Shown piece by piece: positions 734 through 37,035 of a stretch of DNA of 64,000 nt; within the stretch, counting starts at the first letter, position 1, and each line of letters begins with the position of its first letter. Both the position numbers and the translations under genes were made by a program. The notes beneath the pieces are model-generated. The model saw nothing but the letters and a program-made list of their open reading frames with translations. It was not told the origin of the DNA and searched no databases. Source of the stretch: Chiloscyllium plagiosum (taxonomy: Eukaryota); contig NC_057718.1 in the NCBI RefSeq assembly GCF_004010195.1, positions 77,016,079-77,080,078 of the forward strand, given 5' to 3'.

Positions 734-769
734 AATCGACGTTTCGGGCAAAAGCCCTTCATCAGGAAT
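734..769 (-). ncRNA. Minimal hammerhead ribozyme motif
   Basis: Revcomp ATTC-CTGATGA-A-GGGC-TTTT-GCCC-GAAAC-GTC-GATT; core intact, stem I weak. Confidence 0.75.
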
Positions 770-791
770 ACAAGCGTTCTTTTCCACCTGT

Positions 792-827
792 ATTCCTGAT
801 GAAGGGCTTTTGCCCGAAACGTTGATT
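792..827 (+). ncRNA. Minimal hammerhead ribozyme motif
   Basis: ATTC-CTGATGA-A-GGGC-TTTT-GCCC-GAAAC-GTT-GATT. Confidence 0.7.
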
Positions 828-1675
828 TTACTGCTCCTCGGATGCTGCCTGAACTGCTGTGCTTTTCCAGCACCACTAATTCAGAATCTAGTTTCCAGCA
901 TCTGCAGTCATTGTTTTTACCTATATGTCTAGACAGTTAGCTGGAGATGAATGTGAAGTATATCCCTGAAAATTATAGCTCTAATGTTTTTGGGGAGGTT
1001 GGAGAATGCAGGTATCCAGGAAATTGGTTAGAAAATCAAGAGCTCTTACACAATTCAATGGCAGGATCACATCATACTGTTCTCAACTATTTCCAGCTTA
1101 ATAGCTAACTAAATAGACAGGCTGACTGTCCTAGATACGATAACCAATGTCAGGAGGTCATAGCTATAGACTTTGCGGCACAGATCATCATAATTGGGAG
1201 ACAGCAACAGATTAAAATTTGGAAGAATTGGGAGGGAGGTCATTGTGACAGAAGAGGAGCAGTAATTGGGAATTGCAGGAGTTAGGTTGTTGGCAATATA
1301 TCTTGAAATCTTTCTTTGTTATGCAGATCCTGTTTATTGATCTGAACATTCCTTCAAGATCAGTGCTCAGTTATGTCCATGTGCTTCTTTCAGGAAATCA
1401 CGGCTTGTTTTTTGCACTTGGAGATACATTATCAATTGCCAAGTTACTGCCTGCTTGTTCTACTTGAGAAGAACATTGGTCACCAATTGGGAATTAGAGG
1501 CTGGTGATCATAAGAGGGGACAGAAAGTGGCTGAGATGGTAAACAAAAGGCCAAAGACTGTTTTAACTCAGGTGACAGCCATTTGCTACTTCATTTATCA
1601 GGGCAATGCTTTGATCATTCAGAATGATCTGCCTCATTTTGAAATTAAACAAAGCCTTATTATTAAATCATCGTT

Positions 1676-1920
1676 GAAAAGGTGGCACTGGAAAAGTACA
1701 GCCGGTCAGGCTGCACCCAAGGAGCAGTAGAATCGACATTTTGGGCATAAGCGCTTAATCAGGAATGTGGGGCTGTGGGGGTGAGTTGGGGAGGGGACTG
1801 AGGGATAAATGAGTTGAAGGGTTGACTCTGGGATGAGGTGGGGGGAGGGAAATAAGAAAACTGATGAAATCGACATTGATGCCGTATGGTTGGAGGAATC
1901 CAAGGTGGAAGCTGAGGCAT
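1676..1920 (-). mobile_element. PLE 3' fragment
   Basis: Minus strand 1858-1920 encodes LSFHLGFLQPYGINVDFISF (PLE C-terminus), followed by a decayed terminal repeat. Confidence 0.7.
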
Positions 1921-2604
1921 TTGTCAGTCATCAGTACCTGGTGCTTTCTCTATGGCAACAGAGTTCAGAGTTCACTTTTCAATCAATCTGAACTCTTGCC
2001 TCATGAAAGAGTTGATTGATTTGCTTTTAATTCTTGCAAACCATCCTGATGAATGCAAGATGAAAAGTTTAGATAAAATACGTCTTCTTTTTAGCAATAT
2101 TTTTCTCAGATTTCAGTATTTATGGTTATTGTTCATTGTGAATGCTAGTTTTGGCTTTTCTTCAGATATATTAATATTTCAGTTCAAATATGTTTTCTGA
2201 ATAACTTTACTGGGCATCTTCTCAGTTTTCCTATAAAAGCTAAAACAATTGACAGGAGGAAATTCACATTTTTTTATGTCTTCTTGTTATGTGATCACAG
2301 TTAACCAAATAGCCTACAGCCATGTTATACACCATTGATTACTTATAAATTTGTACAATCAATTTTCTCTTCCTACCTCAGACCCAAAACCATATCATAA
2401 GCAGGCTATAAGGCCCTTTAGGCCTGTTCCACTAATCAATATAATCTTGGCTGATCTGACCTTTCCTACTAATCAAGAATCTATGTATCTCAGCCTTAAA
2501 TATATGCAAGGACTCTGCTGCAATAGCTCTCTGTGCCAAGATGTTCTAAAGACTCACAGTTCTCTGAAATTGAGAAACAAATTTGTAAGGAATTCTCAGT
2601 GACT

Positions 2605-3138
2605 GAAATATTGCACGCAATTCTGGTCTCCTTCCTATCGGAAGGATGTTGTAAAACTTGAAAGGGTTCAGAAAAGATTTACAAGGATGTTCTCAGGATT
2701 GGAGGATTTGAGCTATAGGAGAGGCTGGGGCTGTTTTCCCTGGAGCGTCAGAGGCTGAGGGGTGACCTAATAGAGATTTATAAAATCATGAGGGGCATAG
2801 ATAGGATAAATAAAAAGTCTCTTCCCTGGGGTGAGGGAGTCCAGAACTAGAGGGCATATGTTTAGGATGCGAGGGGAAAGATATAAAAGAGACCTAAGCG
2901 GCAACTTGTTCACTCAGAGGGTGGTACGTGTATGGAATGACCTGCCAGAGGAAGCGGTGGAGGTTAGTACAATTGCAACATTTAAAAGGCATCTGGATGG
3001 GTATATGAATAGGAAGGGTTTGGAGGGATATGGGCCAGGTGTTGGCAAGTGGGACTAGATTGGGTTGGGATATCTGGTTGGCATGAATGAGTTGGACCGT
3101 AGGGTCTGTTTCCATGCTGTACAACTGTATAACTCTAT
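2605..3138 (+). mobile_element. CR1 (HER1-like) LINE 3' fragment
   Basis: SRTRGH..FTQRVVRVWNDLPEE..FKRHLDGYMNRKGLEGYG and the CR1 3' tail. Confidence 0.9.
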
Positions 3139-3437
3139 TTGTAAGACTATGAGGGTGATTATGGTAGTGTATTTTGACTTCTTAAACTTAGACTGGGACT
3201 GCCATAGTGTTAAAGGTTTGGATGAAGAGGAAGCTGTTAAGTGTGTACAAGAAAATTTTCTGATTCAGCACATGGATGTACCTGCTACAGAAGATATAAA
3301 ACTTGACTTACTCTTGGGAAATAAGGCAGGACAGGTGACTGAGGTGTCAGTGGGGGAGCACTCTGGGGCCAGTGACCATAATTCTATTATTTTTAAACTA
3401 GTGATGGAAAAGGATCTAAAAGTTGAAGTTCTTAATT

Positions 3438-5662
3438 TGAGTTAAATATCACACAACACCAAGTTATAGTCCAACAGGTTTATTTGGAAGCACTAGCTCT
3501 CGGAGTGCCGCTCCTTCATCAGGTGGTTGTGGATTATAAGCATGTAAAACACAGAATTCATAGCAAACACTTACAGTGTGTTGTAACTGAAATTATATAT
3601 TGAAAAAGACTTGGATTGTTTGCTAAGTCTCTCATCTTTTCGAATGGACATGTTGGTTTCAGTTCTTTCATATGTAAATTCAGAACTTACTTAAAGTTAC
3701 ATTCTCAAGTGAACTTTAACAATAGGTGCCATGTTGGCCCAGATAATGCACTGGTGGTGTCTGTGCCCCAATGTTCAGACTGATTCTAATCTAAAAATGG
3801 GATTTACAAAATCTTATGTGGATTCATACAGTTTTTGAGCAAAATAAAATGTAATTCTGGAAGTACAAATTCACCCCACAAACCTATGTGTGTGTGTTTG
3901 CATGNNNNNNNNGTGTCTGTGTGTGTGCATGTGGGTTATCTGTGAGTGTGTGTCTGTCTGTGTGTATGTGTGTCTATGTGTATATGTGTGTGTAGTGCAG
4001 TGGGGTCACCTGTAGTGCGACATGAACCTGAGGTCCCGGTTGAGGCCATCCTCATGGGTATTAAACTTGGATTTCAGCCTCTGCTCGGCCACATTACATT
4101 GTCACCTGTCCTGAAGTCTGCCTTGGAGGATGGTCACCCAAAGGTCTGAGGTCGAATGTCCCAGACCGCTGACGTTCTCCGACTGGGACCGAACACTCCT
4201 GTGTGTTGATTGTTTTACGGTGTCCATTCATCTGTTGCCGTAGCCTCTGCTCAGTCTCACCAATGTGAGATTGTGTATTGACCTCCTCAGGAGACAGACA
4301 CGAGCTGCAACCGACAGGTACCCTTTGTTGTCCAGTACTTCCCAGGAGCCAAAAAATGACGTATGTTCTTTGCAGCCTGCAGCACATTATCAATGAGAAT
4401 GAGCACCTCGCCAAGACCTTCCCCACACCTCCACATCTCGCCTTTAAACAACCACCAAACCTCAAACAGATCATTGTTCGTAGCAAACTGCCTGACTTTC
4501 AGGACAATACCATACAACCTTGTCACTGTAGACGCTGCAAGATGTGTCAGAATGTCGACACAGATACCACCATTTCCTGTGGGGACACCTCCCATCATGT
4601 ACGTGGCAGGTACTCATGCGACTCAGCCAGCATTGTCTACCTCATACGCTGCAGGCAAGGATACCCTGAGGAATGATACATTGGTGAGACCGAGCAGAGG
4701 CTATGGCAACAGATGAATGGACACTGCACAACAATCAACAGACAGGAGTATTCCCTCTCAATGGGAGAATACTTCCATGGTCCAGGACATTCGACCTCAG
4801 ACCTTTGGGTGACCATCCTCCAAGGCGGACTTTGGGACAGTCAACAATGCAAAGTGGCTGAGCAGAGGCTGATAGCCAAGTTTGGTACCCATGAGGATTG
4901 CCTCAAATGGGACCTTGGGTTCATGTTACACTACAGGTGACCCCACTGCAAAACACACACATACACACTCCTACAGACCCATACACTAATGCAGATCCTC
5001 TCATACACAAGCTCTTTCTCATCCGGCTCACATATGCAGTCCCACACTTCCATATGCACCCTCTCACAGACTTATACCCCTTTACACTCACACACATACA
5101 CACACTCTCTCACAGACACTCATACCCTAACCACCACCACCACCACCACCCCCCCCCCACCCCCGCACACACATATATAATTTTGTGGGGTGAATTTGTA
5201 CAGAATTACATTTTATTTTGCTCAAAAAGTGCATGAATCCATGTAAGATTCTGTAAACCCTGTTTTTAGATTAGAATCAGTCTGAACATTGGGGCACAGA
5301 CAACCTCACACAGGGCACCTCACATCTTCAATACATTATCTGGGCCAACATGGCACCTATCGTTAAAGTTCACTTGAGAATGTAACATTAAGAAAGTTCT
5401 GGAATTTATATATGAAAGAACTGAAACCAACGTGGTCATTCTAAAAGATGAGAGATTTACAAACAATCCAGGTCTTTTTCAATAATTTCAGTTACATCAC
5501 ACTGTAAACTTTTACTATAAATCCTGTGTCCTACGATCTTGTACTCTGCAACAGCCTGATGAAGGAGCAGCACTTTGAAAACTAGTGCGGTTGGACTATA
5601 AGCTGGTGTTGTATAACTTTTAACTTTTTATACCCCAGTCCAACCCCAGCACCTCCAAATCA
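3438..5662 (+). mobile_element. Penelope-like retroelement, 5'-truncated, with a long inverted 5' arm
   Basis: Cys-rich linker CHCRRCKMC and GIY-YIG (VYLIRC..YIGET..RL..MNGH) at 4500-4940; ~3440-4262 is an inverted copy of the 3' part; TSD TTCTTAATT at 3429-3437 and 5663-5671. Confidence 0.9.
3886..3992. repeat. (TG)n-rich microsatellite, mirroring the (CA)n tract at ~4950-5175 in the PLE 3'UTR
   Basis: Direct reading; contains an 8-N gap. Confidence 0.8.
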
Positions 5663-8262
5663 TTCTTAATTGGAGGAAGACCAATTTTCATTGTGTGAGG
5701 CAAGAACTTTCAGAAGTTAATTAGGGGCGAATCTTTGCAAGTAAAGGTATAGCTGATAAATGAGAAGCCTTCAAAAATGAGATAATGAGAGAGCAGAGAC
5801 AGGATGTTCCTGTTAGAGTGAAAAATAAGACTGGTAGGTGTAGGGAATTCTGGATAACTAGTAAAATTGAGGTTTTGGTCAAGAGTAAGAAGGAAGATAG
5901 AGCAGCTATAGACAGTAGAGATTAAATGAATCCCCAGAAGACTATAAAGGCAATGGAGGTATACTTAGGAAAGAAATCAGGAGGGCAAAAAGGGGAGATA
6001 AGATAGCTTTGACAAATAGGGTTAAGGAGAATCCAAAAGTATTCTGCAAATACATTAAGGACAAAGGAGTAACTTGTAAGAGAATAGGGGCCCTTAAAGA
6101 TTAGCAAGGCCACCGATGTGTGGAACCCCGGGAGATAGGGAAATACTAAATGAATATTTTGCATCAGTGTTTACTGTGGAGAAGGACGTGGAAGACAGAC
6201 AACATGAGGAAAAAGTGACATCTTGAAAAATGTCCATATTGCAGGTACTGGTTGTCTTAAAATACATAAAGGTAGGTAAATCCTCAGGACCTGCTCAGGT
6301 GTACCCTAGAACTCTGTGGGAAGCTAGGGAAGTGATTGCTGGGCCCTTGATAAGATATTTGCATCATCGATAGCCACTGGTGAGGTGCTGGAAGACTGGA
6401 GGTTGGCTAACATGGCACCAATATTTAAGAAAAGTGATAAGGAAAAGTCAGGGAACCATAGCTGACCCTGACATCAGTGGTGGGTAAGCTGTTGGAGGAA
6501 ACCCTGAGGGACAGGAGTTACATGTATTTGGAAAGGCAAGGACTGATTAGAGATGGTAAACATGGCTTTATGTGTAGGAAATCATGTCTCACTAACTTAG
6601 TTGAGTTTTTTGAAGAAGTAATAAGAGGATTGATGAAGGCAAAACAGTGGAGGTGATGAATATGGATTTCAGTAAGGCATTCAACAAGGTTCCTCTTGGT
6701 AGACTGGTTAGCAAGGTGAAATCAAATGGAATACAGAGAGAACTAGCCATTTTGATACAGAACTGGATTGGAGGTAGAAGGCAGAGGGTAGTGGTGGAGT
6801 GTTACTTTTCAGACTGGAGACCTGTGACCAGTGGTGTGCCACAAGGATCGGTGCATTGTCCACTGTTTTTTGTCATTTATATAAATGATTTGACTGTGAA
6901 TATGTGGTAAGGTTAGTAAGTTTGCAGATGAATTCAAAATTGGATGTGTAGTGGACAGCAAAGACGGTCACCTCAGAGTACAGTGGGACTTTAATCAGAT
7001 GGGCTAATGGGCCAAGGCGTAACAGATGGAGTTTAATTTAGATAAATTTGGGATGCTGCATTTTGAAAAGGCAAATCAAGGCAGGACTTACACACTTAAT
7101 GGTAAGGCCATGAATGTTGTTGAATAAAGACTCCTTGAAGTGCAGGTTCAAAGTTTCTTGAAAGTGGAGTCTCAGGTGGACAGAATTGTGAAGAAGGTGT
7201 TTGGTATCGTTGCCTTTACTGGTTAGTGCACTGAGTATAGGAGTTGAAATGTCATGTTGCGGTTGTATAAGACATTGGTTAGGCAACTTTTGGAATATTG
7301 CATTCAATTCTGGTGTCCCTGCTATAGGAAGGGCATTGTGAAATTTGAAAGAGTTCAGAAAAGATTTACAAGAATGTTGCCAAGGTTGGAGGGTCTATGC
7401 TAGACAGAGAGGCTGAATAGACTGGGGCGATTTTTCCTGGAGCATCGGAGGCTGAGAGATGACCTTATAGAGGTTCATAAAATCATGAGGGGCATGGATA
7501 GGGTAAATAGACAAGGTCTTTTCCCTGGTGTTGGGGGAGTCCAGAACTAGAGGGCATAGGTTTAAGGTAAAAAGGGCAAGATTTAAAAGGGACTTAACGG
7601 GCAGCTTTTTCACACAGAGGGTGGTGCATGTATGGAATGAGCTGCCAGAGGAAGTGATGGAGGCTGGTACAATCACAACATTTATAAGGCATCTTGGTGG
7701 GTATATGAATAGGAATGGTTTAAAGGGATATGGGCTAAATGCTGGCAAATGGAACTAGATTAATTTAGGGCATCTGGTCAGCATGGATGAGTTGGACCGA
7801 AGAGTCTGTTTCCATGCTGTATAAGTCCATGATTCTAGGAGAAGAAATTCTTCTTCATCTCAGTCTTAAATTGGTGTCCTTTTACAGTTGCAAAAAGACT
7901 TCCCTAGTACTATACTCTAAAACACTTGAAATAAGGTCCAACATTTCATTAGTCTTCCTTATTACCTGCAGTGTTTTATTTTCTGTGTTTTGAGTGCAAA
8001 TGCTCCCAAATCCCTTTGCATTAGAGCTTTCTGCAATTTTCGCCATTTATATAATACTCTGTTCTTTCTCCTTTTTCTCCTTTCCAAAATGAATGACATC
8101 ATATCTCCCATATTATACTTCATTTGTCAACTATCAATATCTCTCTATAAACTGTTTTTATCCTTCTCACAATCTGCTTTTCTACCTATTTTTGTGTCAT
8201 CTGCAAATTGGTTTCAGCATATTTGCTCTCTTCCTCCATTGATGTACATTGTAAACAACTGT

Positions 8263-8352
8263 GTTCTGAGGAAGAGTCACCAGACCCAAAACGTTAATGC
8301 CGATTACTGTTAACAGATGCAGCCAGACCTGCTGAGCTTTTCCAGCAACTTC
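8263..8352 (+). mobile_element. PLE terminal-repeat relic with decayed hammerhead
   Basis: GTT-CTGAGGA-AGAGTC-ACCA-GACCC-AAAACGTTAA followed by CAGATGC..AGACCTGCTGAGCTTTTCCAGCAA. Confidence 0.65.
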
Positions 8353-9775
8353 TTATAGACAGCTATGGTCTCAGCACTGATCCCTAGTTACAGCTTGCCA
8401 ATTCAAAAAGAACCTCTTATCCCCATTCACTACTAAAACAATAGCAGCTTTTTAAAATTCTCTTTTTAAGTTTTATCATCAAATCTCAAAACACTCTCAT
8501 TTTTAAAACATTTTTTCTACAGCACCAATTTCATAGGAAGACTCTAAATTTTCTGACTGCTCCATTTGATGTATTATCCATTGTTCACAGTGCAGATAAG
8601 ATAAATAAGATGTGCTATGTAAAGGATTAATTTAGAATTAATATAAGTTTTACTTAATTTGGGAATATTTTGAGCAAAATATTAAATGGACCACAAGCAT
8701 TGTTTTCTGGTTAACCAAAACCTTCTCTTTTTATTGGTGTTCTTTATTTTACCGTTGACTTTCTTTGATGTTTAGGCTAATCCTCTTTTTGTTGGTATAT
8801 CACGCACACTGTTCACTTGCTTCTCATTTTGTTGCTCTATTTTGTTATGTTTGCAAAACATTTTCAACAACTTCTTCCCTATATTTATGGTCAATATTCA
8901 TCCCATATTTAACATCTGAAACTGATCCTGTGGCTATTTCATTCTTTGCTGTTTATGGAACATTGATATATGTGGATTAACTGCCACAGTCAGACATTTC
9001 AATTGTAACTACATTTTAAAGCACTTTGTGCTGTCATGAGGCTGTGACAAGCACAACATAAATACAAGTCATAGAAGTTTTCCTTTCTTGCAATGCTTGA
9101 CAGATTCCAAAAACTCAAGTTCCAGAGGCCCTGGTTGAAGGTTGTAGTACACTAGCGTTATGACACATAATGTGTAATCATCTCGACTCCAGCATCTAAC
9201 AAATTTTTACACCATTTATTTGTACCCTTTATGCTGATTGCATTAAATGTAGAGGCCAAGAATCTCCACATGGGCAGTTCCATTGCTTTTGGAAAGGATT
9301 TGGCTCAGAGAGATATGTAATTAAGTAATTATTTATTTAAGTAAGTGTTTTCTTGGATCAGCTCATTTGCTTAGCTCTTGTTGTTGTTGTAAGTTCTGTG
9401 TAAAAAATAGTATACTCTGCTGGTCTGCATGAAAATTAGAGGGCAACCTTTAAAACTAGTTTTGGTTGAACATTGCAGTGGCAGACACAAAAGGATAGAA
9501 GGTCCTTTTGTGGATGTTTGCTCTCTTGAACTTCCTGGTACACATTCAATAGAATCTACTAGAGGAGCAGTTAATACGTAACTAAACAAAATGGAGTCCA
9601 TGTTACATTGGCACAAGAGAAGGTATGTGTCCTCAGTTGTCCTCCTCAATTCTACATTTTCGCAATTCTGAAAGACCTGAATAGTATCTCAATAAAACAT
9701 TGTAACCCCAAATTAATCAAGAACTTTGGATTTTTTTTAAGAAGGTTGGATAGGTCAGTTGGTTAGATGTTTAGC

Positions 9776-10258
9776 AAATTCTGATCTGCTTCCTACAAAG
9801 AAAAAATTACAAGGGTGTTGCCAGGGTTGGAGGATTTGAGTTATAAGGAGAGGTTGAATAAACTGGGGCTATTTTCCTTGAAGCATCGGAGGCTGAGGGG
9901 ATTATAAAATCATGACGGGCATGGATAGGGTAAATAGACAAGGTCTTTTCCCTGGGATGGGGGAGTCCGGGACTAAAGGGCATAGGTTTAGGGTGCGAGG
10001 GGAAAGATATAAAGAAACCTAAGGGGCAACCTTTTCACGCAGAGGGTGGTGCGTGTGTAGAATGGGCTGCCAGAGGAGGTGGTGGAGTCTAGTACAATTG
10101 CAACATTTAAAAGGCATCTGGATGGGTATATGAATAGGAAGGGTTTGGAGGGATATGGGCCGGGTGCTGGCAGGTGGGACTAGATTGGGTTGGGATATCT
10201 GGTCGGTATGGACAAGTTGGACCAAAGGGTCTGTTTCTGTGTTTCTCTATGACTCTAT
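9776..10258 (+). mobile_element. CR1 LINE 3' fragment
   Basis: Similar to 2605-3138; ends TCTCTATGACTCTAT. Confidence 0.9.
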
Positions 10259-16569: not shown

Positions 16570-17203
16570 GGGTGTAGGTTTGTTCGCTGAGCTGTAGGTT
16601 TGATATCCAGACGTTTCATTACCTGGCTAGGTAACATCATCAGTGGCGATCTCCAAGTGAAGCGAAGCTGTTGTCTCCTGCTTTCTATTTATATGTTTGT
16701 CCTGGATGGGGTTCCAGGGGTGTCATTTCCTGTTCGTTTTCTGAGGGGTTGATAGATGGTATCTAGATCAATATGTTTGTTTATGGCGTTGTACTTGGAG
16801 TGGCAGGCCTCTAGGAATCCTCTGGCATGTTTTTGCTTAGCCTGTCCCAGGATAGATGTGTTGTCCCAGTCGAAATGGTGGTTTTTTTCCTCTGTGTGTA
16901 GGGCTACGAGGGAGAGAGGGTTGTGTCTTTTTGAGTAGTCTGGCTGTCATTTCTGAAACTTCTTTGATGTATGGTAAGGTGGTTAGGGTTTCTGGCTGTG
17001 TTTAGTCTGCTTGTCATGGTTTGTTCTTGAGGAATCTGCGGACTGTACTTTTTGAGTATCCATTCTTTTTGAATACGTTGTATAGGTGGTTCTCCTCTGT
17101 TTTCCGAAGTTCGCCTGTGCTGCAGTGTGATGCTCATTGGAATAGTGTTCTGATACAGCTTTGTTTGTGTGTGTTGGGATGGTTGCTGGTGTAGTTAAGT
17201 ATT
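16570..17203 (-). mobile_element. PLE (Poseidon-like) 3' fragment with internal deletion
   Basis: TLPYIKEVSEMTARLL and HHFDWDNTSILGQAKQKHARGFLEA..INKHIDLDTIYQPL; near-TSD GTT(A/G)ATTAAA at 16560-16569 and 17204-17213. Confidence 0.85.
16607..16646 (-). ncRNA. Minimal hammerhead ribozyme motif
   Basis: Revcomp CCA-CTGATGA-T-GTTACCT-AGCC-AGGTAAT-GAAAC-GTC-TGG; stem I CCA/TGG, 7-bp stem II. Confidence 0.8.
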
Positions 17204-17488: not shown

Positions 17489-17695
17489 AAAAATCACACA
17501 ACACCAGGTTATAGTCCAACAGGTTTAATTGGAAGCACACTAGCTTTCGGAGCGACGCTCCTTCATCAGGTGATTGTGGAGGTGAAGGAGCGTCGCTCCA
17601 AAAGCTAGTGTGCTTCCAATTAAACCTGTTGGACTATAACCTGGTGTGTGTGATTTTTAACTTTGTACACCCCAGTCCAACACCGGCATCTCCGA
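17489..17695 (+). mobile_element. PLE fold-back mini-element of the same family as 3438-5662
   Basis: Inverted arms ~17489-17565 / ~17583-17657; TSD ATCATTAATGCT at 17477-17488 and 17696-17707. Confidence 0.85.
17538..17572 (-). ncRNA. Minimal hammerhead ribozyme motif
   Basis: Revcomp CAC-CTGATGA-A-GGAGC-GTC-GCTCC-GAAAG-CTA-GTG; stem I CAC/GTG, palindromic AGCT. Confidence 0.8.
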
Positions 17696-18874: not shown

Positions 18875-18979
18875 ACCATTGTATGTCAAGGGATGGTGAT
18901 TAGATAGTCTCTTATTGATAGTAGTTATTGTCTGGTATTTCTGTGGCATGCAAGTTATTTGCCACTTGTCAGTCCAAGC

Positions 18980-19164
18980 ACAGCAGGTCAGGCAGCATCC
19001 AAGGAACAGGAGAATCGACGTTTCGGGCATAAGCTCTTCTTCAGGAAGGGCGTATGCCTGAAACGTCGATTCTCCTGTTCCTTGGATGCTGCCTGACCTG
19101 CTGCGCTTTTCCAGCAACACATTTTCAGCTCTGATCTCCAGCATCTGCAGTCCTCACTTTCTCT
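18980..19164 (+). mobile_element. PLE fold-back mini-element
   Basis: 16-bp TSD ACTTGTCAGTCCAAGC at 18964-18979 and 19165-19180; inverted arms centred ~19045. Confidence 0.85.
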
Positions 19165-19610
19165 ACTTGTCAGTCCAAGCCTGGATATTGTCCATATTTT
19201 ATGGCATTTGAATACAGACTGCTTCAGTATTGGAGGAGTTGCAAATGGTGCTGAAAATTGTCAATCATTGGCAAACATCCCTGCTTCTGACTTAATGATG
19301 GAGAAAAGATCATTGTTGAAGCAGCTGAAGATAGTGGCACTACCCTGACAAACTCCTGCAGAGATGTCCTGGAACTGAGATGACTCACTTTCAACAAGTA
19401 CTGCCATCTTCTTTTGTGCCATATATGACTAAAACCAATGGAAAGTTTGTCCCTTGATATCCATTTATTCCAGTTTTGATAGGGCTTCTTGATGTCACTC
19501 CTTCCTCACCTGCAGAATTCAGCTCTTTTGTCCATGTTTGAACCAAGGCTGTAATGAGGTCAGGAGTGAGTGGTCTTGGTGGAACTCAAACTGGGCATCA
19601 CTGAGCAGAT

Positions 19611-19788
19611 AAAAACAAATTACTGCAGATGCTGGAATCTGAAACCAAAAGAGAAAATGCTGGAAAATCTCAGCAGGTCTGGCAGCATCTGTAAGGAGAG
19701 AAAAGAGCTGATGTTTCGAGTCTACTCTTTTATCTCCTTACAGATGCTACCAGACCTGCTGAGATTTTCCAGCATTTTCTCTTTTGGG
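19611..19788 (-). mobile_element. PLE fold-back mini-element, different family
   Basis: TSD ATCACTGAGCAGAT at 19597-19610 and 19789-19802; inverted arms. Confidence 0.8.
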
Positions 19789-19897
19789 ATCACTGAGCAG
19801 ATTATTGCCGAGTAGATGCTGCTTGATAGCACTTTTGATAACGCCTTCTATCACTTTACTGATGATCAAGAGTAGACTGACGGAGCAGTAATTGGCC

Positions 19898-20054: not shown

Positions 20055-20557
20055 GTAATTGACCTGGTTGGATTCTCTGCTTTTTATGTACATGATATAT
20101 CTGGGCAAATTTCCACATTGTTGGGTAGATGCCAGTGTGGTAACTGTACTGTAACAGCTTGGCTAGGGCCGCAGCAAGTTCTGGAGCAGAAGTCTTCGGT
20201 ACTATTGATGGAGTGTTGTCAGGGCACATAGCATTTGCAGTATCCAGTGCCTCTAACCATTTCTTGATATCACGTGGAGTGAATCAATTGGCTTAAAACT
20301 GGTATCTGAAATGCTCAGACTACTGGAGGAGGCTGAGCTGGATCATCCACCAAATATCTCTGGCTGAAAATTGTTGCAAAAGCCTCAGCTTTATGTCTTG
20401 CACTGATGTGCTTGTCTCTCCTATCATTGAGATAGGGATATATGTGGAGCCTCCTCCTCCAGTTTGTTGTTTAATTGTCTACCACCATTTGCGACTGGAT
20501 AGGACAAGACTGCAGAGCTTAGATCTTATCTGTTGGTTGTGGGATCGCTTAGCTATG

Positions 20558-20688
20558 AGGAGAAAGTGAGGTCTGCAGATGCTGGAGATCAGAGATGGAA
20601 ATGTGTTGCTGGAAAAGCGCAGCAGGTCAGGCAGCATCTAGGGAACAGGAGGATCGACGTTTCGGGCATTAGCCCTTCTTCAGGAATC
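20558..20688 (-). mobile_element. Solo PLE terminal repeat
   Basis: TSD CTTAGCTATG at 20548-20557 and 20689-20698. Confidence 0.85.
20652..20687 (-). ncRNA. Minimal hammerhead ribozyme motif
   Basis: Revcomp ATTC-CTGAAGA-A-GGGC-TAAT-GCCC-GAAAC-GTC-GATC. Confidence 0.7.
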
Positions 20689-20974
20689 CTTAGCTATGTC
20701 TATTACTTGCTGCGTCTGCTGTTTGGCATGCAAGTACCTCATTTTAAATATTCCTGGTGCTGCACCTGGCATGCTCTCCTGTGCTCACCATTGAGCCAGG
20801 GTTGATCTGCTGGTTTAATGATAATGGTTGAGTGAGAGATATGTCAGGTTGCAGATTGTGCTGGAGTGCAATTCTGCTGCTGTTGATGGCCCATTGCGCC
20901 TCATGGATGTCCAGTCTTGAGTTGCTCAATTTGTTTGAAGTCTGTCCCATATAGTATGGTGATAGTGCTACACA

Positions 20975-21197
20975 GGAGAAAGTGAGGACTGCAGATGCTG
21001 GAGATCAAAGCTGAAAATGTGTTGCTGGAAAAGCGCAGCAGGTCAGCAGGCATCCAAGGAGCAGGAGAATCGACGTTTTGGGCATGAGCCCTTCTTCAGG
21101 CATTCCTGAAGAAGGGCTCATGCCTGAAACATCGATTCTCCTGCTCCTTGGATGCTGCTTGACCTGCTGTCCTTTTCCAGCAACACATTTTCAGCTC
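20975..21197 (-). mobile_element. PLE fold-back mini-element
   Basis: TSD TGATAGTGCTACACA at 20960-20974 and 21198-21212; inversion centre ~21101. Confidence 0.85.
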
Positions 21198-21212
21198 TGA
21201 TAGTGCTACACA

Positions 21213-21409
21213 GTCAAAAGGTGTGGTGCTTGAAAGCACAGCTGGTCAGGAAGCATCCAAGGAGCAGGAGAATTGACGCTTCCAATTTTGAAGAGCTGAT
21301 GGTTGAAATGTCGACTCTCCTGCTCCTCGGATGCTGCCTGACTGGCTGTGCTTTTCCAGCATGACTCTTTTTGACTCTCCAGCATCAGCAGTCCTCTCTT
21401 TCTCTCTCC
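21213..21409 (+). mobile_element. Older PLE fold-back mini-element
   Basis: TSD TGATAGTGC(T/C)ACACA at 21198-21212 and 21410-21424. Confidence 0.8.
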
Positions 21410-21784
21410 TGATAGTGCCACACAACCTAATGGAGGATAATTTTAATACAAAAGTGGAAATTCATCTGCACAAGGACTGTGCAGTGGTCACTCTTACCAA
21501 TACTGTCATGACAAATACATCTGCAGCCGGCAGATTGGTAAGGATGAGGTCAAGTATGTTTTCCCCTCTTATTAATTCCCTCACCATTTACTACAAACCA
21601 AACCAGCTCAATGAATAGTGCTATTGCCAAGCTACTCTTGGTGGTGGACATTGAAATCCCCCACCCAGAGTACATTTTCCATTGGGAGAGATGAAATTAT
21701 CATGGAATTTTGAAGCTTCATTAATGCCCTTTAGGGATGGAAAAATTCCATCATTATCTGGTGTGACTGACATGTGAATCTAGA

Positions 21785-21988
21785 GCTGAAAACGTGTTGT
21801 TGGAAAAGCGCAGCAGGTCAGGCAGCATCCAAGGAGCAGGAGAATCGACGTTTCGGGCATGAGCCCTTCTTTCTCATGCCCGAAACGTCGATTTTCCTGC
21901 TCGTTGGATGCTGCCTGACCTGCTGCGCTTCTCCAGCAACACATTTTCAGCTCTGATCTCCAGCATCTGCAGTCCTCACTTTCTCCTC
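21785..21988 (+). mobile_element. PLE fold-back mini-element
   Basis: TSD TGTGAATCTAGA at 21773-21784 and 21989-22000. Confidence 0.85.
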
Positions 21989-22140
21989 TGTGAATCTAGA
22001 ACCACAGTAATGTCATAGTTGATATTAATGTTACAATTAACTCTTAACTGCCTTCTGAAATAGTCAGCAGTCACTCAGTGCAAAGGCAACTAATGATGGA
22101 CAACACATCCCACAAAAGAATTTTTAAAAATTATTAGAAA

Positions 22141-26379: not shown

Positions 26380-27399
26380 ACAGATAATTGAATGTTACTA
26401 CTACATGAGGCAACATATAAGTTTTCCTTTCTCCCCTCACAATTTCCAAGCTAAAAGTTGTTTGAGAGATAGCAAAACAGAATTATGGTTTCAAATGTGC
26501 ACGATAAAGGTATATTGGGAATGGTGATGGATGAGGGAGTGCATTGAACTGAGGGGAAGGTGAATGTTATTGATTAGTGATATGCTCACTAGTTAAATAA
26601 TATACTGGTGACAATGGGCATATAGCACATTTTTTGTACAAACTATAGTGTTTTAAACTAATTATTTAAATCCAAATAAATGAAGTTGGCAAAAGGTTTC
26701 CAATATTCAAGAAACAACTGCCTAAAACAAATATTTCACCCCTTATATTTGTAAATGTAAGACCTAATCACCTGTTTTAGGTGTCATCATAGCAACTGGG
26801 CAATGATACATTATTCAGACATTGGGTCTTGCTGAGGAGTCATCAATGACTGAAAATTCAAGAGTTTATTTCTTTTAATTATTGAAAAAGAAACACCCTG
26901 TGAAGTCAGAGAACTTGCTGCCCCATTTGCTCCCCACCACCCCCATCCTTAGATTGTAGAGCTTAGATTCCAGGGACTCATTTCATGCTCAGTGCTACAG
27001 AGGCAAGTGGTCAATATTATTTGCATGAGCTTCCTTGTTATTGTTTGTGGAAATTTGCTGCATGCAAATTGACAGCTGCATTTGCTACATTGCATGAGCA
27101 ATTACACTTCGAAAGTACTTAATCGGTGCCTTTATTAAAAGAACCTAATAAGGTGCTTTGCAACTTCCTGAGGTCTTAAAAGATGTCATATAAATATAGG
27201 CACATGGAAGATAGTATAATGAAGGATATTTAGGTTAGGCAGATCTTTAGAGTAGGATAAAAGGCCGGACAACTTTGAGGGCCAAAGGGCCTGGCCTTCC
27301 CCTAAACTATACTATACTGTTCCATGTTCAAAGTCAATCTTCCTAGCAAGGGTGAATTCCAACTTGTACATCTATCATTATTCATCCAAGGAACAGGAG

Positions 27400-27435
27400 A
27401 ATCGACGTTTCGGGCATAAGCCCTTCTTCAGGAAT
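27400..27435 (-). ncRNA. Minimal hammerhead ribozyme motif
   Basis: Revcomp ATTC-CTGAAGA-A-GGGC-TTAT-GCCC-GAAAC-GTC-GATT. Confidence 0.7.
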
Positions 27436-27469
27436 CCTGAAGAAGGGCTGATGCCCGAAACGTCGATTC
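27432..27469 (+). ncRNA. Minimal hammerhead ribozyme motif
   Basis: GAATC-CTGAAGA-A-GGGC-TGAT-GCCC-GAAAC-GTC-GATTC; 5-bp stem I. Confidence 0.75.
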
Positions 27470-28359
27470 TCCTGTTCCTTGGATGCTGCCTGACCTGCTG
27501 CGCTTTTCCAGCAACACATTTTCAGCTCTGATCTCCAGCATCTGCAGCTCTCACTTTCTCCTATCATTATTCATCACTAATTTAAGATGGTGAAATTTTA
27601 TCAAGAAGGTTTGCTGTTATAATGACTCTGTTAGGGACTATTTATCAGATTCTTTTTGGTCTTAACTTACAATTTAAATAATTGTTTGTTAGGGTCATTT
27701 ATTCTGACTATGTCCAATTAAGCTCAATACAAGCCTGAGAAATTACAATGTATTATCTTCTATTGAACACTTTAGAGTGCACTGGTCATAATATTAACTT
27801 CAATCATTTCAGGACTTTGATGTGGTTTCCACAATATCTTCAGAAGGAAAAATTTAAATGGCCAGTCAGCTTTAAGTGATGTTGAGGTATAGTCCAGGAC
27901 ATCAGGAGAAATATCTTTGTGTCAAATAATGACATAGGATGTTTTTGTCTACCTGAGAGGGAGTCTGTAGCCTCAGTTCAGTGTTTCATTTAAAGGTGGT
28001 GTAAGATAGAATGTTTCAGGAAGGATGGAGAAGAGATTAATGCTTATGGTGGGATTGAATTTGAAGGAACATTTTGTTGCCCAGTTTAGTCAGCAACCTA
28101 AGTACTGAACTACTTTTTACTTTCCTGAAACTCTTAGGCTCTCAGTTTTGTTTTTGCCATTTTTCATGCTTCCATTTCTGTAAAAGATTTCCCCACCCCA
28201 TTGCTACCATTGCACCATCGTTCCTTCAGTTATTAATTATTCTCTGTAAATGTATATAATTTTTCACATTATAGCACCTAGAGTTCCACATTAATATTTC
28301 ACAAGCCATTTAACTGTCATGGATGAACATCCACTTTTACTTAAGCAAGATATGGGATT

Positions 28360-28600: not shown

Positions 28601-28639
28601 GATACTTAAATGGATATGAGCTAGACTTTAGAGATGATG

Positions 28640-29907: not shown

Positions 29908-30261
29908 TAGAGTCACAGCGTGGAAACAGACCCTTCGGTCGGTCCATGACGACCAGATATCTCAACCCAATCTAGTCCCACCTGCCAGCACCCGGCCCAT
30001 ATCCCTCCAAACCCTTCCTATTCATATACCCATCCAAATGCCTCTTAAATGTTGCAATTGTACTAGCCTCCACCACATCCTCTGGCAGCTCATTCTATAC
30101 ACGTATCACCCTCCATATGAATAAGTTGCCCCGTAGGTCTCTTTTATATCTTTCCCCTCTCACCCTAAACCTAGGCCCTCTAGTTCTGGACTCCCTGACC
30201 CCAGGGAAAAGACTTTGCCTATTTACCCTATCCATGCCCCTCATAATTTTGTAAACCTCTA
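29908..30261 (-). mobile_element. CR1 LINE 3' fragment
   Basis: Reverse complement of the CR1 3' end seen at 2605-3138. Confidence 0.9.
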
Positions 30262-30781
30262 TTCTGATCAGATTCAGTAATAATTCTGAGAATTGCCAGG
30301 AGTCTGTGTGTCTGTGCCTGTGTTTTAATATCTTATCAAGTTGCTCAAAATATTGTTAATGAGGGAAATCCTACTGAGGGGAGGGAAAAACAAGTTGAAA
30401 TTTCCGTCCCAAATATATAATTTTTGTTTGAAAAATTCTGCTTTTTTTTGGGGTGGGGGGTGGTCTCGAAAGCAGATGAAAGCATTTTGTGACCGCTGTA
30501 AAGCTTAGAAGACAAAACCAAGGTGTCAACTTCATGGTTAGAATGAGGTTGGAAGCTCTGCCCGCTTTCAGATCAAGCAACAGTACTCACTGTTCCAGGA
30601 TCTACAAATGGAAACTGGTTCCATATCCAGGTGTCATGAGAATAATTTCACATTTTAAACCTTGCTTCTGCTCGTAGTTGGCACATTCTAGCTCTCAATT
30701 TATACAATGTTGTCAATTTCAATTGAAGGAAGCCCTTTTATACTATTGACTTAGAATTTGGTTATGTGATTACCTCTAATA

Positions 30782-32036
30782 TAGAGTCATAGAGTCATAG
30801 AGATGTACAGCACGGAAACAGTCCATTCAGTCCAACTCGTCCATGCTGACCAGATATCCTAACCTAATCTCATCCCATTTGCCAGCACTTGGCCCATATC
30901 CCTTTAAACCCTTCCTGTTCATATATCCATCCAGATGCCTTTTAAATGTTGTAATTGTACCAACCTCCATCACTTCCTCTGGCAGCTCATTACATGCACC
31001 ACCCTCTGTATGTAAAAGCTGCCCCTTAGGTCCCTTTTACATCGTTCCCCTCTCACCCCGAACCTATGCCCTCTAGTTCTAGACTCCCCCACCTCATGGA
31101 AAATACCTTGGCTGTTTATCCTAAACATGCCCCTCATGATTTTATAAACCTCTATAAGGTCACCCCTCAGCTTCTGACGCTCCAGGGAAAAAAGCCCCAG
31201 CCTATTCAACCTCTCCCTATAGCTCAAATCCTCCAACCCTGGCAACATTCTTGTAAATCTTTTCTGAACTCTTTCAGATTTTATAACACCCTTCCAATAG
31301 GAAAGAGACCAGAATTGCACGCAATATTCTAAAAGTGGTCTAACTAATGTCCTGTACAGCTGCAACATCACCTCCTCACCCCTGTACTCAATGCTCTGAC
31401 CAATAAAGGAAAGCACACCAAACGCTTCAATATCCTATCTACCTGCGACTCTACTTTCAGTGGACTATTAACCCACCCTCCAAGGTCTCTTTATTCAGCA
31501 ACACTCCCTAGGACCTTACCATTCAGTGCATGTCCTGCTGATTTGCTTTTCCAAAATGCAGCACCTCGCATTTATCTAAATTAAACCCCATCTGGTCACT
31601 GGCCAATCTGATCTAGATCCCTTTGTCATCTGAAGTAACCTTCTTTGCTGCCCACTACACCTCCAATTATGGTGTTATCTGAAAACGTACTAACTATACG
31701 TCCTATGTTCACATCCAGATCATTTATATAAATGATGAAACATAGTAGACCCAGCACCGATCCTTGTGGTACACCACAGGTCACAGCCTCCAGCCTGAAA
31801 AGCAACCCTCCACCACCACCTCCTGTCTTCTATCTTTGAGCCAGCTCTGTATCCATATGGCTAGTTCTCCCTGTATTCCATGAGATCTAACCTTGCTAAC
31901 CAGTCTCCCACGAGGAACTTTGTCAAACGCCTCACTGAAGTCCATATAGATCACGTCCACCACTCTGCCCTCATCAATCCTCTTTGCGACTTCTTCAAAA
32001 AACTCAAATCAAATTTGTGAGACATAATTTCCCACA
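30782..32036 (-). mobile_element. CR1 LINE (RT to 3' end)
   Basis: YMDFSEAFDKVPRGRL; LYRTLVRPLLEYCVQFWS; (ATGACTCT)n tail. Confidence 0.9.
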
Positions 32037-32075
32037 ATGTTGCAATTTGTAACTGTGAAAGCTGAGTTACTCCCA

Positions 32076-32265
32076 GACCATATCAACACGACGGTTGGAG
32101 GAAGAGTGCCTCATCTTCCGCCTAGTAACCCTCCAACCACAAGGGATGAACTCATATTTCTCCAGTTTCCTCATTTCCCCTCCCCCCACCTTGTCTCAGT
32201 CATGTCGATTCTCCTGTTCCTTGGATGCTGCCTGACCTGCGCTTTTCTAGCAACACATTTTCAGC
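32076..32265 (+). mobile_element. PLE 3' fragment with internal deletion
   Basis: TRRLEEECLIFRLVTLQPQGMN then terminal repeat; TSD TTACTCCCA at 32067-32075 and 32266-32274. Confidence 0.75.
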
Positions 32266-32609
32266 TTACTCCCATTTTAACCCTACCGCCTATTACTGCT
32301 TACTTTGAGATTAACATAAGCTTTAAACCAAGTTAATTCTATTCTCTAGATTCCATCTACGTTTGGATCACTGTAGCTGCTTTCCCTTTTTGCCTAATGC
32401 ATCTGTAGCAATTCTTGTTTACACAGCCTGCTTTTTAAAAATCACTGTGTCTTAAAATTTATGGCGTGCCAATCTGTATTGACAATAAATATACCTCAAC
32501 ATATATTGTATTTGTAAGATCACTGGGTATTCTTATTTCATTGTTTGATCATTTACTGTTTCTGCTTCAAGTAAAACTAATTTTAGGGCATACGGCCTTT
32601 TAGGTCAAC

Positions 32610-33320: not shown

Positions 33321-33849
33321 ATGGGAATCTTGTGCCGCTTCATTAGAGAAAGATTCGAGCAGCTAGGATCTTATTCAAAATATCCACGGGACATGTTCAG
33401 AGAGTAAAGAGCAGAACTGAGATCTCAAGTGGGGTCACAAACTAAAATTCTGTGGGGTTACAAGTTCTGAGGCAGCAATGGTGACCATGGAACTCTACAC
33501 CAACTGCAACCCCTGCGCCCCCACCCCTCCACTCCCTCCCCCCCCCGCCATCCCTGGCTTTCTGTCTTTTCTTCCTAACCTCTGCACTCATTCGTCTTCA
33601 TCCAGCTGCCTCTGCTTTTTTAGCTCTCACCAAGGGGTCGCAAATTGGGTCATAGTGGGAAAAAGTTTGGGAAGGGTTGCATAATAGTGAAGAAAGGATA
33701 TATTCATCAGGATCTGGTTGGGGGGTGAGTTTAGATGGGCAGGCTATGGGGAATGTGGGTGGGACTAGAATTTTGGGTGGGGAAGGATGGAAATGATGAT
33801 GGGACAGGATGGGTGGTGGGAATCTGATCCAGAAAAGTAAAAGACATCA

Positions 33850-34040
33850 TCGACTCCTCTCTCATTTAGAGAGAGATGACTGGTAGCAAGTTATATCAGG
33901 GTCACCATACCTCAACCAAATGGTGGGTCTTAGAAGTCAGAGCCTTCACAGTGAGATCAGCTGATACTAGAATTGACCTATGCACCATTGGCCTTAATCA
34001 ACATCATAAACAACCATCCAGCCAACAAAGCTGACCCCCC
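33850..34040 (-). mobile_element. tRNA-derived SINE relic
   Basis: Revcomp begins GGTCAGCTTTGTTGGCTGGATGG..GGTCAATTC. Confidence 0.45.
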
Positions 34041-35055
34041 CCTAATGCCATCATTTCAACAAGAAGCTGACTGAAATCACCAAAACTGTCAAGGTCACTG
34101 AAGGCATCTTCAAAGAACATCTCCAATCACTGCACCACCCATGTTACACACTGCACAGTGCCCTCATTAGCAGTATTTAGCACTCAGGACTCAGGCCAAA
34201 CATCCAGAGATTCCATTTGAGTCTCACACACCTTCCATTTGCATTTATACCCAGTTCCAACTTCTAGCTCATTTCAGCTACTCAGCAATGGCACATCATA
34301 CAACAAACTGTGACATAATCACTGAGTTTTCTGCCTCCTCCTTGCAGGTCAAGGTGATTCATAACATGAGCAGAGCAGAACCAGTGAAGGACAAGAATGT
34401 CTACATCTCCTAAGCTCCACAGAGATGTTATCTACATCATGAGGCCAGTTGTGGTAGAGCAGTAGCATCAGACATCACAACATATTCATGATGATGAATG
34501 TTCCTGCTTTATGCTGTTTCTCAGCATTTCACTGTGCTACCATAGATCATGCAACAGCAGAAGTTGGTCTAAATCACAGTGCAATGTTGCTTAAGGTGCT
34601 GTAGTGAGCTGCTGGATCTGATAGAAAGGAGTGTTGTTGCATCTTCACAGAGTGGTAGAGGTTTTGATGATCCATAGAAAGGGTTGTAGTTGTAATGCCT
34701 ATGAGTCAGCAAAACAACTGGAAGATGGAGTGAGGCTGTTGAGATGGAAAATTCCATGTAATAGCTTCTGCCATGTCAGAGCCAAACATTTCCATGTTCT
34801 TTGACAGCGAATGAGCAGTCTTGCAGCCGAACCAAGGCACCCGCATCCTAATTAGTGTTCTCCTGTATGCGACCAAAGACCTCTTCTGGATTTTCATTAG
34901 TAGGACTCATCTGTAAAATCTCCACATAAGCCACTTTACCTGCAATTTCACTGTATGACCTTTAAATAACACTTACCGTGATTCCCTTCTATAGTAGTGG
35001 ACGTGCACAATCTAAGATTCTGGTATGTGTTCAGATTTTGCGTGGTTGTTTCCTT

Positions 35056-36370
35056 TAAGACCATATGATGTAGGAGCAGAAATAGGTCATTTTACACATC
35101 AAGTGTGTTCTGTTATTCAATGAGATTGTGGTTGACCTAATAGTACTCAACTACACTTTCCTACCTTTGCCTCATAATCGCTGAATCCCTTACTGATCAC
35201 AAGTCTATCTACCTCAACTTTGACTATGCACAAAATATGCACAAGACATTTCTCATCATCTCTGTCTTAAATATGAGGTGCCTTACACTTTGATTGTGCT
35301 GTTTGCCCTTGATTCTCTCACAAGGGGTACCAACCTCTCTGCATCTACCCTGTTAAGTCCCCTAAGATATTTACACGTTTCAATAAGGTCTCTTCTCATT
35401 CTTCTAAACTCCCCTGAGTACAGGCCCAACCCACTAACCTCTTCATAAGAAATCCCTCATATTTGGAGTCAACCCGGTGCACCTGCTCTGGACTGCCTCT
35501 AATGCAATTATCCCTTTCCTTGGCTAAGGGAACCAGAACTATTCACAGTATTCCAACTGTGGTCTAATGAGCGCCTTTTATAGTTTTAGCAAGATCTTCC
35601 CATTTTTATACTCCATTCCCTTTGAAGTAAAGGCCAACATTCAATTGCTTTCACTATTACCCACTGCACTTGGATGCTACCATTTTGTGATTCATCCTGA
35701 GGAGCCTATATTCAATGTGGCCTGTCTTTTCCTTTTTATATATTAGAAGAAGCTCTTACTGTCCATTTTTATATTACTTGCTGGTTTAGCCTAGTTTTTA
35801 TTCTCCCTCTCTTTTTGATCATCTTTTTAAAACTTTCTCTTTGGTTTACTACTAATCATTGAAATATTGTAAGTTTATTCTCTGAATTTGATACCACCCT
35901 TAACTACTTTGGTTAGCCATAGCTGATGCATCCACTTCATAGAAACCTTCTTACCGGGCTATATCTTTGCTGTGAGTTATAAACTATTTTCCTAAACAAC
36001 TGACATTGTTTGTTAACCATCTTTTCTGCTGAACTCCTTTCCAAGCCTACTCAACTGTCAGCCATTTTTAATTATCCTTACTTAAATTTATCACAGTTGT
36101 TTCCAACCCAAGTTTCACGCTCACAAACTGAATTCTAAATTCTACTATATTATGATCATTAATCCCAAGGCGACCTTTAACTCTGACGGCATTTATTAAA
36201 TTGCCTCATTACATATCACCTGATCCAAATTAGTTTCATCCCTGATTGATTCTACAACATGTTCTTCCAGGAAACTGTCCTGAATATACTCTGTAAATTC
36301 TTTCTGCTGGCTACTTTCACAAATTTGATTTTCCAAATCTACCTAAAGATTAAAGCCACCCAGTTATTGC
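35056..36370 (-). mobile_element. Old CR1 LINE fragments
   Basis: TAAGACCATATGATGTAGGAGCAGAA antisense 3' end; CCAGAACTATTCACAGTATTCC (antisense of EYCE.FW). Confidence 0.65.
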
Positions 36371-36623
36371 TATGGAGCCTAGGAACTGCTCCCACTAGTG
36401 TTCTGTCACAATCTGTCCAATGAAAGTACTTTTCGTTTGGTTCCTGCAAAGCGAACAGTCTGTTTTCATGGCTTTCAGATAAAATTTCACCTGAAATTTG
36501 TTTTTTGATCATTTGTCCCTGTTTACACAGGGTAATAAAGCATTCAGTTATTGAAGGCACAAACCACAGCTTTCCATTATGTCACCTTTCTGAGCTGCTT
36601 TTACTCAAAAAACATTTTTTATC

Positions 36624-37035
36624 AAAGTTTGTGAGAAGGTTTGTAGCTCGGGTGCTCGTTGTTGTGGTTCTGTTCACCGAGCTGGGAATTTGTGTTGCAG
36701 ACGTTTTGTCATCAGTGCTTGGGATCCTCCTGTGAAGCGCTTCTGTGATGTTTCCTCCGGCATTTATAGTGGTTTGAATCTGCTGCTTCAGGTTGTCAGT
36801 TCCAGCTGTCCGTTGCAGTGGTCGGTATATTGGGTCCAGGTTGATGTGCTTATTGATTGAATCTGTGGATGAGTGCCATGCCTCTAGGAATTCCCTGGCT
36901 GTTCTCTGTTTGGCTTGTCCTATAATAGTAGTGTTGTCCCAGTCCAACTCCTGTTGCTTGTCATCTGCGTGTGTGGCTACTAAGGGTGGCTGGTCGTGTC
37001 GTTTCGTGGCTAGTTGGTGCTCATGGATGCGGATC
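36624..37035 (-). mobile_element. PLE (Poseidon-like) 3' fragment
   Basis: DWDNTTIIGQAKQRTAREFLEAWHSSTDSINKHINLDPIYRPL; hammerhead relic at 36697-36718. Confidence 0.85.

Follow-up and report, generated by a model that had tools for sequence, protein, structure and literature searches.

Numerous minimal hammerhead motifs of Penelope-like elements in a shark genome, and a preferred 5′ end of Neptune-type copies at the front edge of the motif

A 64,000-nt stretch of the Chiloscyllium plagiosum genome (RefSeq assembly GCF_004010195.1, contig NC_057718.1, positions 77,016,079 to 77,080,078 of the forward strand; the window hereafter) carries a recurring CUGANGA/GAAA motif that, judged from its sequence, is the minimal type I hammerhead of Penelope-like elements (PLEs) and is very numerous. 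The motifs very probably lie in the pseudo-long terminal repeats (pLTRs) of these elements, the copies scattered through the genome being stubs that derive from uncut RNA. Copies of the Neptune-type families mostly end 3-5 nt upstream of the motif core, and those of the Poseidon-type families are without such a stop. Once inserted, the scattered copies decay neutrally.

Positions relative to the motif are counted from C3 of the CUGANGA box, which is set to 0. A strict descriptor consisting of the core, a stem II of at least 4 bp and the NUH triplet, with stems I and III not required, gave nine matches in the window, compared with a mean of 0.04 (maximum 1) in 50 order-3 Markov simulations and none in the reversed window sequence. 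The recurrence reported in an earlier note on this DNA is thus real, and the sequence described there was found at every coordinate it named. The same descriptor was applied to 60 stretches of 10 kb taken at fixed steps from ten large contigs (577,230 non-N bases; a small sample for families C, D and F, introduced below), where it yielded 40 matches against none in the reversed control. This density of ~69 strict motifs per Mb, scaled to the genome, is of the order of 2x10^5; a single family pattern had 87,506 exact matches across the 3.56-Gb assembly, with a control of 0. By homology, 32 copies were counted in the window and 166 in the sample; about 20 decayed ones in the window had been overlooked in the note. 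Seven window copies combine a perfect core with a palindromic stem III, their C3 lying at 765(-), 796(+), 16643(-), 17569(-), 20683(-), 27431(-) and 27437(+); the copy at 796 has the triplet GUU, not GUC. At 123 (C3 155, minus strand) and 8263 (C3 8266, plus strand) the family D motif described as decayed is indeed present, with its core broken by a G12 to A change, and the copy at 36718 (C3 36715, minus strand) is likewise broken, its stem II being entirely gone. All 40 strict matches of the sample show one unpaired base followed by the G that opens stem II, the script having tried one extra base first. A search of the window against Rfam revealed no hammerhead family at E<=10; the microRNA (miRNA) and small nucleolar RNA hairpin matches that it did return were all below cut-offs and were rejected as inverted arms or chance.

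The motifs fall into five PLE families, in keeping with the at least four proposed earlier: three of Neptune type (A, B and D) and two of Poseidon type (C and F). Stem II is GGGC in family A, which comprises several subfamilies, GGAGC in family B, and long in families C and F; the tail of family D is related to that of family A. Base pairs were counted by parsing each copy, an alignment made with MAFFT having put the GAAA boxes out of register. Between families, stem I pair 2.1-1.1 (CG/CG/AU/UA/AU) and pair 2.2-1.2 (UA/AU/CG/UA/CG) both stay complementary, and the center of the stem III palindrome is CG in A, C, D (8266) and F, GC in B and CA in one decayed D copy. This stem is a loopless palindrome and cannot close within one motif, as had been noted. 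Stem I measures 3 bp in B, C and F and 4 bp in subfamily A3; in A1 and A2 it consists of 2 bp, a U.U and 1-2 bp, the U.U at the third position being the exception to complementarity between families. The covariation claimed for the stems thus stands for stems I and III between families, but the dominant GGGC subfamilies offer only two contiguous stem I pairs before the U.U, and the GCA/UGC version, although present, comes from the copy at 36718 that has lost stem II. In the A3 loci (L012, L015, L019 and L032) stem I is fully paired over 4 bp, in contrast to the mismatched U.U of the commoner A1 and A2.

Families were linked to PLEs through homologue searches and tblastn, the latter detecting remnants of PLE proteins directly upstream of the motifs of A (61947-59963), B (4320-4925), C (17202-16668) and F (37046-36672). 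Along the family A remnant the order is reverse transcriptase (RT), thumb and endonuclease (EN). A natural RT piece of family A (locus L132) matched RVT_1 at the cut-off, and among the 120 homologues listed for it most carried RVT_1 (PF00078) and many also GIY-YIG (PF01541), the best named ones being shark proteins at 79-83%. The family F query yielded 12 matches, mostly named from sharks; a PDB sequence search gave nothing useful. A CX2-5CxxC linker, which marks the Neptune and Nematis clades (PMC8557442), was found in the remnant of family B and in the two family A homologues that were checked, had decayed in the A copy of the window, and had no match in P0122, the closest long homologue of C and F, in which the RT is present. 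By this linker criterion alone A and B are called Neptune-type and C and F Poseidon-type, a naming that does not separate Neptune from Nematis. Four isoform models of shark host proteins (P0124, P0126, P0127 and P0130: a 5′-nucleotidase domain protein, MAP3K7, CUE-domain protein 2 and a WBP2-like protein) contain a piece of the family F endonuclease region, by exon capture or by annotation error.

Where the copies end was examined in family A above all. Their 3′ ends are bimodal, at +85-95 and +120-130, some 35 nt apart. At the 5′ side, 95 of 104 sample copies were usable after references and gap- or edge-limited rows had been dropped; of the 64 that reach +5, 42 end within -10..+5, and for 27 of these an adjoining inverted arm or a target duplication confirms the end. 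Counted per insertion event, 31 of the 50 family A events reaching +5 end in that interval (p 3e-12 against the flanking rate). The same holds for 12/13 copies of family D and for 13/28 rows of family B, with the two native references themselves among the rows, but for 0/13 copies of C and F together. Genome-wide, 42,225 of the 48,404 intact A2 cores (87%) keep seven downstream bases, and 15,416 (32%) keep the seven native upstream ones. Junction matches numbered 3,410 at -4, 761 at +28 and 265 at +12, counts obtained with patterns that differed in stringency, and many of the listed ones at +28 resemble short-homology joins or deletions. An accumulation of 5′ ends at the cut itself was considered and rejected, as only 3 of 69 events fell at +25..+31, compared with 17 over +6..+45. 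Old copies of subfamilies outside the references could appear cut at the motif edge, a limit from which the confirmed junctions and the genome counts of the young subfamily are free. In raw RNA reads and in contigs of other runs, too, loose ends with mixed flanking sequence occurred at -4 or -3; the pile-up of ends is thus not an assembly effect. Our literature search, thin in its coverage of subscription journals, found no paper reporting such a pile-up.

The second regularity concerns the arrangement of copies. Among the 71 same-family pairs lying at most 600 nt apart in the window and the sample, the head-to-head orientation prevails with 53, followed by 12 direct and 6 tail-to-tail pairs. 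Target duplications of 9-17 bp flank ten head-to-head pairs as well as the solo stub at 20683, out of 17 window regions tested; the remaining six have duplications of 5-9 bp, some of them probably due to chance. Each pair so flanked is therefore one insertion. Most pairs combine one long and one short arm, and the arms differ by point changes and tail length. The 734/792 and 27400/27432 pairs lie on opposite strands, such that a transcript contains one motif and the complement of the other, and they fold into hairpins of -184 and -85 kcal/mol, respectively. Head-to-head pairs fold as long hairpins and thus cannot form cis-dimers.

The earlier note had looked to an excess of core conservation over the flanks across genomic copies. 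None was found within families: the 31 copies of A2 showed 10/310 changes in the core (3.2%) and 47/1178 in the tail (4.0%; p 0.62), and the 16 copies of A1 showed 10/160 and 23/608 (p 0.19), both samples being small. For dead retroelement copies this is the wrong level at which to look, and conservation is seen between families. Since the core changes as fast as the tail within subfamilies, selection acts on source elements and not on scattered copies. As for expression, 3,579 of the 12,955,460 records of RNA run X21 fall on the unit in both orientations, and 95% of them continue into dissimilar sequence, the pattern expected if many loci are read through. X21 showed no position shared by the starts or ends of many molecules, although a fragmented poly(A) library tests cleavage only weakly; runs X1 and X16 consist of contigs and cannot show RNA ends.

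Sequences, family links, end positions, orientations and decay are what was observed; catalysis, the order of events and the cause of the stop are inferences. In an active element, as the literature suggests, two motifs in one or in two RNAs would pair their 4-nt palindromes to form helix III, and cleavage would follow the NUH triplet, probably slowly and with help from the protein of the element. Reverse transcription would have two alternative starting points, ~85-95 and 120-130 nt 3′ of the core; the two 3′ ends of family A match the two internal RT start sites and the optional tail of the anole element discussed below. Copying would then run through the uncut motif and, in Neptune-type elements, mostly stop 3-5 nt upstream of the core. 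A second, head-to-head arm would often be added before insertion with a target duplication of 9-17 bp; the inserted copies decay neutrally. Read in this manner, so many young copies provide a fossil record of PLE reverse transcription. Their ends indicate that the template is uncut RNA, which agrees with the in vitro result on the anole element, and that Neptune-type copying stops at the front edge of the ribozyme.

Several observations weigh against assigning the motifs to PLE hammerheads copied uncut. The case is made from sequence, with catalysis predicted. The main A subfamilies have the weak stem I described above, and for monomers and dimers alike a fold other than the active one has the lowest energy, although folding energies do not settle activity. 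For family D, tblastn found no match at E<1e-4, and its tie to PLEs is made by the homology of its tail to that of A and a short frame resemblance. A Pfam scan of seven window fragments revealed no GIY-YIG or RT match, and a genome search with PF01541 gave one weak match among 150 of 14,403 candidates. No intact full-length element or open reading frame (ORF) was seen, the two long frames that were fetched being runs of N at assembly gaps. Gaps occur at window positions 3905-3912 and 14243-14871 and in loci L075, L132 and L133; in the fetched loci they fall within PLE bodies, and full-length elements are thus under-represented in the assembly.

The -4/-3 ends may also be read in another way, which we regard as possible though less likely than not. 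Neptune-type RNA would start at an initiator-like site 4 nt before the core, so that the transcript would begin with the ribozyme. A reverse transcriptase starting ~90-125 nt further in would then run off the capped end to yield a short, 'strong-stop-like' cDNA, which would be inserted alone, snap back into a head-to-head pair, or jump to the matching 3′ repeat and continue. If true, solo stubs, palindromes at junctions and the renewal of pLTRs would all follow from one scheme, which would also place cleavage outside the copying step. Three related families share the sharp -4/-3 peak, and the letters at these positions are initiator-like. Among the first 100 of the 3,410 junction matches at -4, inspected by eye, 24 perfect palindromes were set aside and 43 of the 76 non-palindromic junctions had a G before the first base, compared with 13/100 at an inner-site control whose pattern did not admit G at three flanking positions and whose matches came mainly from inverted arms. 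An extra G of this kind may be a trace of a cap, and a clean one stands beside the target duplication at 20688. The G excess at -4 may, on the other hand, come from inverted arms, the control not being symmetric. Stalling of the RT behind the folded motif would account for the stop just as well as an RNA start; a snap-back at a short self-complementary stretch is a further candidate cause.

The earlier note inferred a large and diverse ribozyme population; that the scattered copies form a large working one, cutting host transcripts as cis- or trans-dimers, appears very unlikely. The density of strict motifs and the genome-scaled figure given above speak for it, as do the presence of the unit in X21 reads in both orientations and the 12/71 close pairs that are direct. 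Neither the 31 A2 nor the 16 A1 copies, however, show an excess of core conservation; copies decay neutrally, the 53/71 head-to-head pairs would bury the motif in hairpins of -85 to -184 kcal/mol, and no shared molecule ends were found in X21, with the weakness already stated for that library. Published activity is low even for dimers (PMC4209133), and one of nine Xenopus dimer elements cut in the accessible account of Li, Clavereau and Pollet (2026; 10.64898/2026.07.22.740005).

We consider it just as improbable that the motif is kept for a non-catalytic job, as a protein-binding fold, an RT stop signal or part of an internal promoter, with cleavage incidental. Insert boundaries do coincide with the 5′ edge of the motif rather than with the cut (the -4, +28 and +12 junction counts above), the subfamilies that have been most successful possess a weak stem I, and catalytic mutants of the anole motif left insertion in vitro unchanged while no RNA-sequencing reads ended at the cut (PMC11167929). 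Yet all catalytic core bases and the NUH triplet are kept across five families with differing stems, a requirement that a mere fold or promoter would not impose, cleavage of the anole motif does occur with protein present (PMC11167929), and the Poseidon-type families keep the motif without the stop (0/13). Lastly, chance or an assembly artefact of collapsed repeats and false palindromes can practically be dismissed in spite of the many assembly gaps inside PLE repeats, being already refuted by controls of 0, by target duplications and arms that differ in point changes and tail length, and by raw reads and contigs of other runs that show the same ends and strand-switch joints.

Motifs of this kind have been in print since 2014, to which the shark families add numbers and variants. 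Cervera and De la Pena (2014; PMC4209133) described minimal dimer-type hammerheads in metazoan PLEs, with ~4,000 and ~9,000 motifs in coelacanth and Xenopus, and dimer cleavage was also reported by Lunse et al. (via the review PMC6765202). The architecture agrees with PMC4209133 feature by feature, in the core boxes, the unpaired base before stem II, the G10.1-C11.1 closing pair, the palindromic 15.2-16.2 without loop 3, the many families per genome, the prevalence of solo motifs with close pairs on opposite strands, and the occurrence in fish Poseidon and Neptune elements, which leaves a claim of discovery unsupported. Differences from that paper are the 87,506 exact copies of one family pattern as against ~4,000-9,000 motifs counted by different methods, and a stem I of 2-4 bp instead of the published 4-5 bp. 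A literature search with the same thin coverage of subscription journals found no paper on shark PLE hammerhead families; the accessible part of PMC4209133 names none, and its supplements may list some.

A close counterpart is PAc, a Poseidon element from the green anole (Frangieh et al. 2024; PMC11167929), which likewise has two internal RT start sites with an optional tail, a motif at the pLTR-ORF junction, and uncut RNA that is copied. In the shark, the accumulation of 5′ ends at the motif's front edge is a feature of the Neptune-type families and was not seen in the two Poseidon-type ones, and the available text of PMC11167929 mentions no stop of this sort. Inverted pLTRs in head-to-head arrangement, with palindromes at the junction, were described by Arkhipova et al. 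(2013; PMC3846280) and Craig et al. (2021; PMC8557442), together with target duplications of 8-10 bp and a proposal of self-priming. The shark copies share with them a 5′-truncated inverted copy abutting the element and a tail on one arm only, and display the optional tail (~35 nt; 30-40 bp in PLEs), the inverted truncated copy and the target duplication of EN+ PLEs; they depart from them in that both arms often consist only of motif and tail (90-130 nt), in duplications of 9-17 bp, and in a junction within ~10 nt of the core. Non-LTR (long terminal repeat) retrozymes, reported from one chondrichthyan by Li, Clavereau and Pollet (10.64898/2026.07.22.740005), whose supplement may list shark motifs, are similarly non-coding, pLTR-derived units with a type I hammerhead. 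Unlike their direct tandem arrays with one motif per unit, the window holds dispersed or inverted stubs and one damaged direct pair, and with 53/71 close pairs head-to-head and both cores of the direct pair 55442/55779 mutated, identity with retrozymes was rejected. The purpose of the PLE hammerhead has been described as unclear (PMC8557442); a defined RNA start beside it, if true, would make that purpose testable.

Turning to individual loci, the family A (Neptune-type) insertion at 662..935 carries two motifs head-to-head between 14-bp target duplications (starts 662 and 922) and folds into a hairpin of -183.8 kcal/mol. The motif at 734..769 (minus strand) is intact, with C3 at 765 and a predicted cut between 738 and 737, and that at 792..827 (plus strand), in the second arm, has an intact core with the GUU triplet. 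Both motifs of the insertion at 27372..27575 (27400-27435, minus, and 27432-27468, plus) are core-intact, with a 5-nt core spacer and a 15-bp target duplication. The head-to-head insertion at 18964..19180 has its junction inside the motif (~19040-19047) and a 16-bp duplication, and the one at 39601..39829 a 17-bp duplication. A solo stub occupies 20548..20698 (minus strand), with an intact motif (20652-20687), a ~100-nt tail, a 10-bp target duplication and one extra G between the duplication and the first base of the element (20688). Three more head-to-head insertions follow at 20960..22000, with junctions near 21103, 21285 and 21872, duplications of 16, 10 and 12 bp, and motifs damaged or cut short. 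Four family A insertions thus lie within 1.5 kb (20548-22000), and since duplications overlap at 21197-21213, one of them sits at the end of another.

Longer family A copies are decayed. The 2.4-kb remnant at 59549..61947 (minus strand) consists of pieces of the RT, the thumb and the GIY-YIG region, after which come a decayed motif (C3 59660) and a tail. An internally deleted copy at 55310..55806 (minus strand) bears the direct motif pair (C3 55779 and 55442, 337 nt apart, both cores mutated), the sole direct pair from a single element in the window. In a copy at 32062-32266 (plus strand) both the core and the 3′ untranslated part have been deleted, which brings the endonuclease end directly against the triplet of the cleavage site. 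PLE 5′ introns are known, and the tail 3′ of the motif (55650-55806, minus strand, and the A and B tails) contains a branch-point-like word, a pyrimidine run and CAG, resembling a 3′ splice site; in the 55779 copy it continues into an apparent ORF start, with no donor site identified.

Family B is represented by a head-to-head insertion at 3429..5671 with damaged motifs (C3 3522, minus, and 5556, plus), a 9-bp target duplication and a GIY-YIG-region remnant (4269-4940) in which the CX2-5CxxC linker is present, and by an insertion at 17477-17707 with a 12-bp target duplication, one arm of which holds the intact motif at 17538..17572 (minus strand; AGCU palindrome, CUA triplet). CA-rich simple repeats lie between the ORF end and the pLTR in family B arms (window 3880-3960 and 4941-5180). 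The family C (Poseidon-type) motif at 16607..16646 (minus strand) is intact, with a stem II of 7 bp, and directly upstream of it is an internally deleted ORF remnant of the thumb and endonuclease region (16668..17202, minus strand; tblastn E down to 8e-31). Family D contributes the motif at 123..158 (minus strand), in which G12 and the stem III palindrome are lost and ~300 nt of the 3′ end of an element lie upstream; a stub at 8263..8351 (plus strand) that begins 3 nt ahead of C3 (8266), with G12 lost; and a head-to-head insertion at 19597..19802 with a 14-bp target duplication, whose long hairpin scores on Rfam miRNA models. The family F (Poseidon-type) motif at 36697..36718 (minus strand) has stem II deleted and an endonuclease-region remnant upstream to 37046.

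Other repeats are also present in the window. Fragments of another retroelement, presumably of the CR1 type of long interspersed nuclear elements (LINEs), lie at 2617-3138, 6623-7840, 9896-10263, 29942-31984, 38337-38643, 43314-44325 and 56473-57055, with an RVT_1 match at 43314-43949. A 224-aa frame at 17983-18657 (plus strand) contains a zf-RVT domain (E 9e-12) and is the end of a different non-LTR element. Finally, a 247-nt direct repeat occurs at 24341-24587 and 24954-25200, its two units being 95% identical and 613 nt apart.

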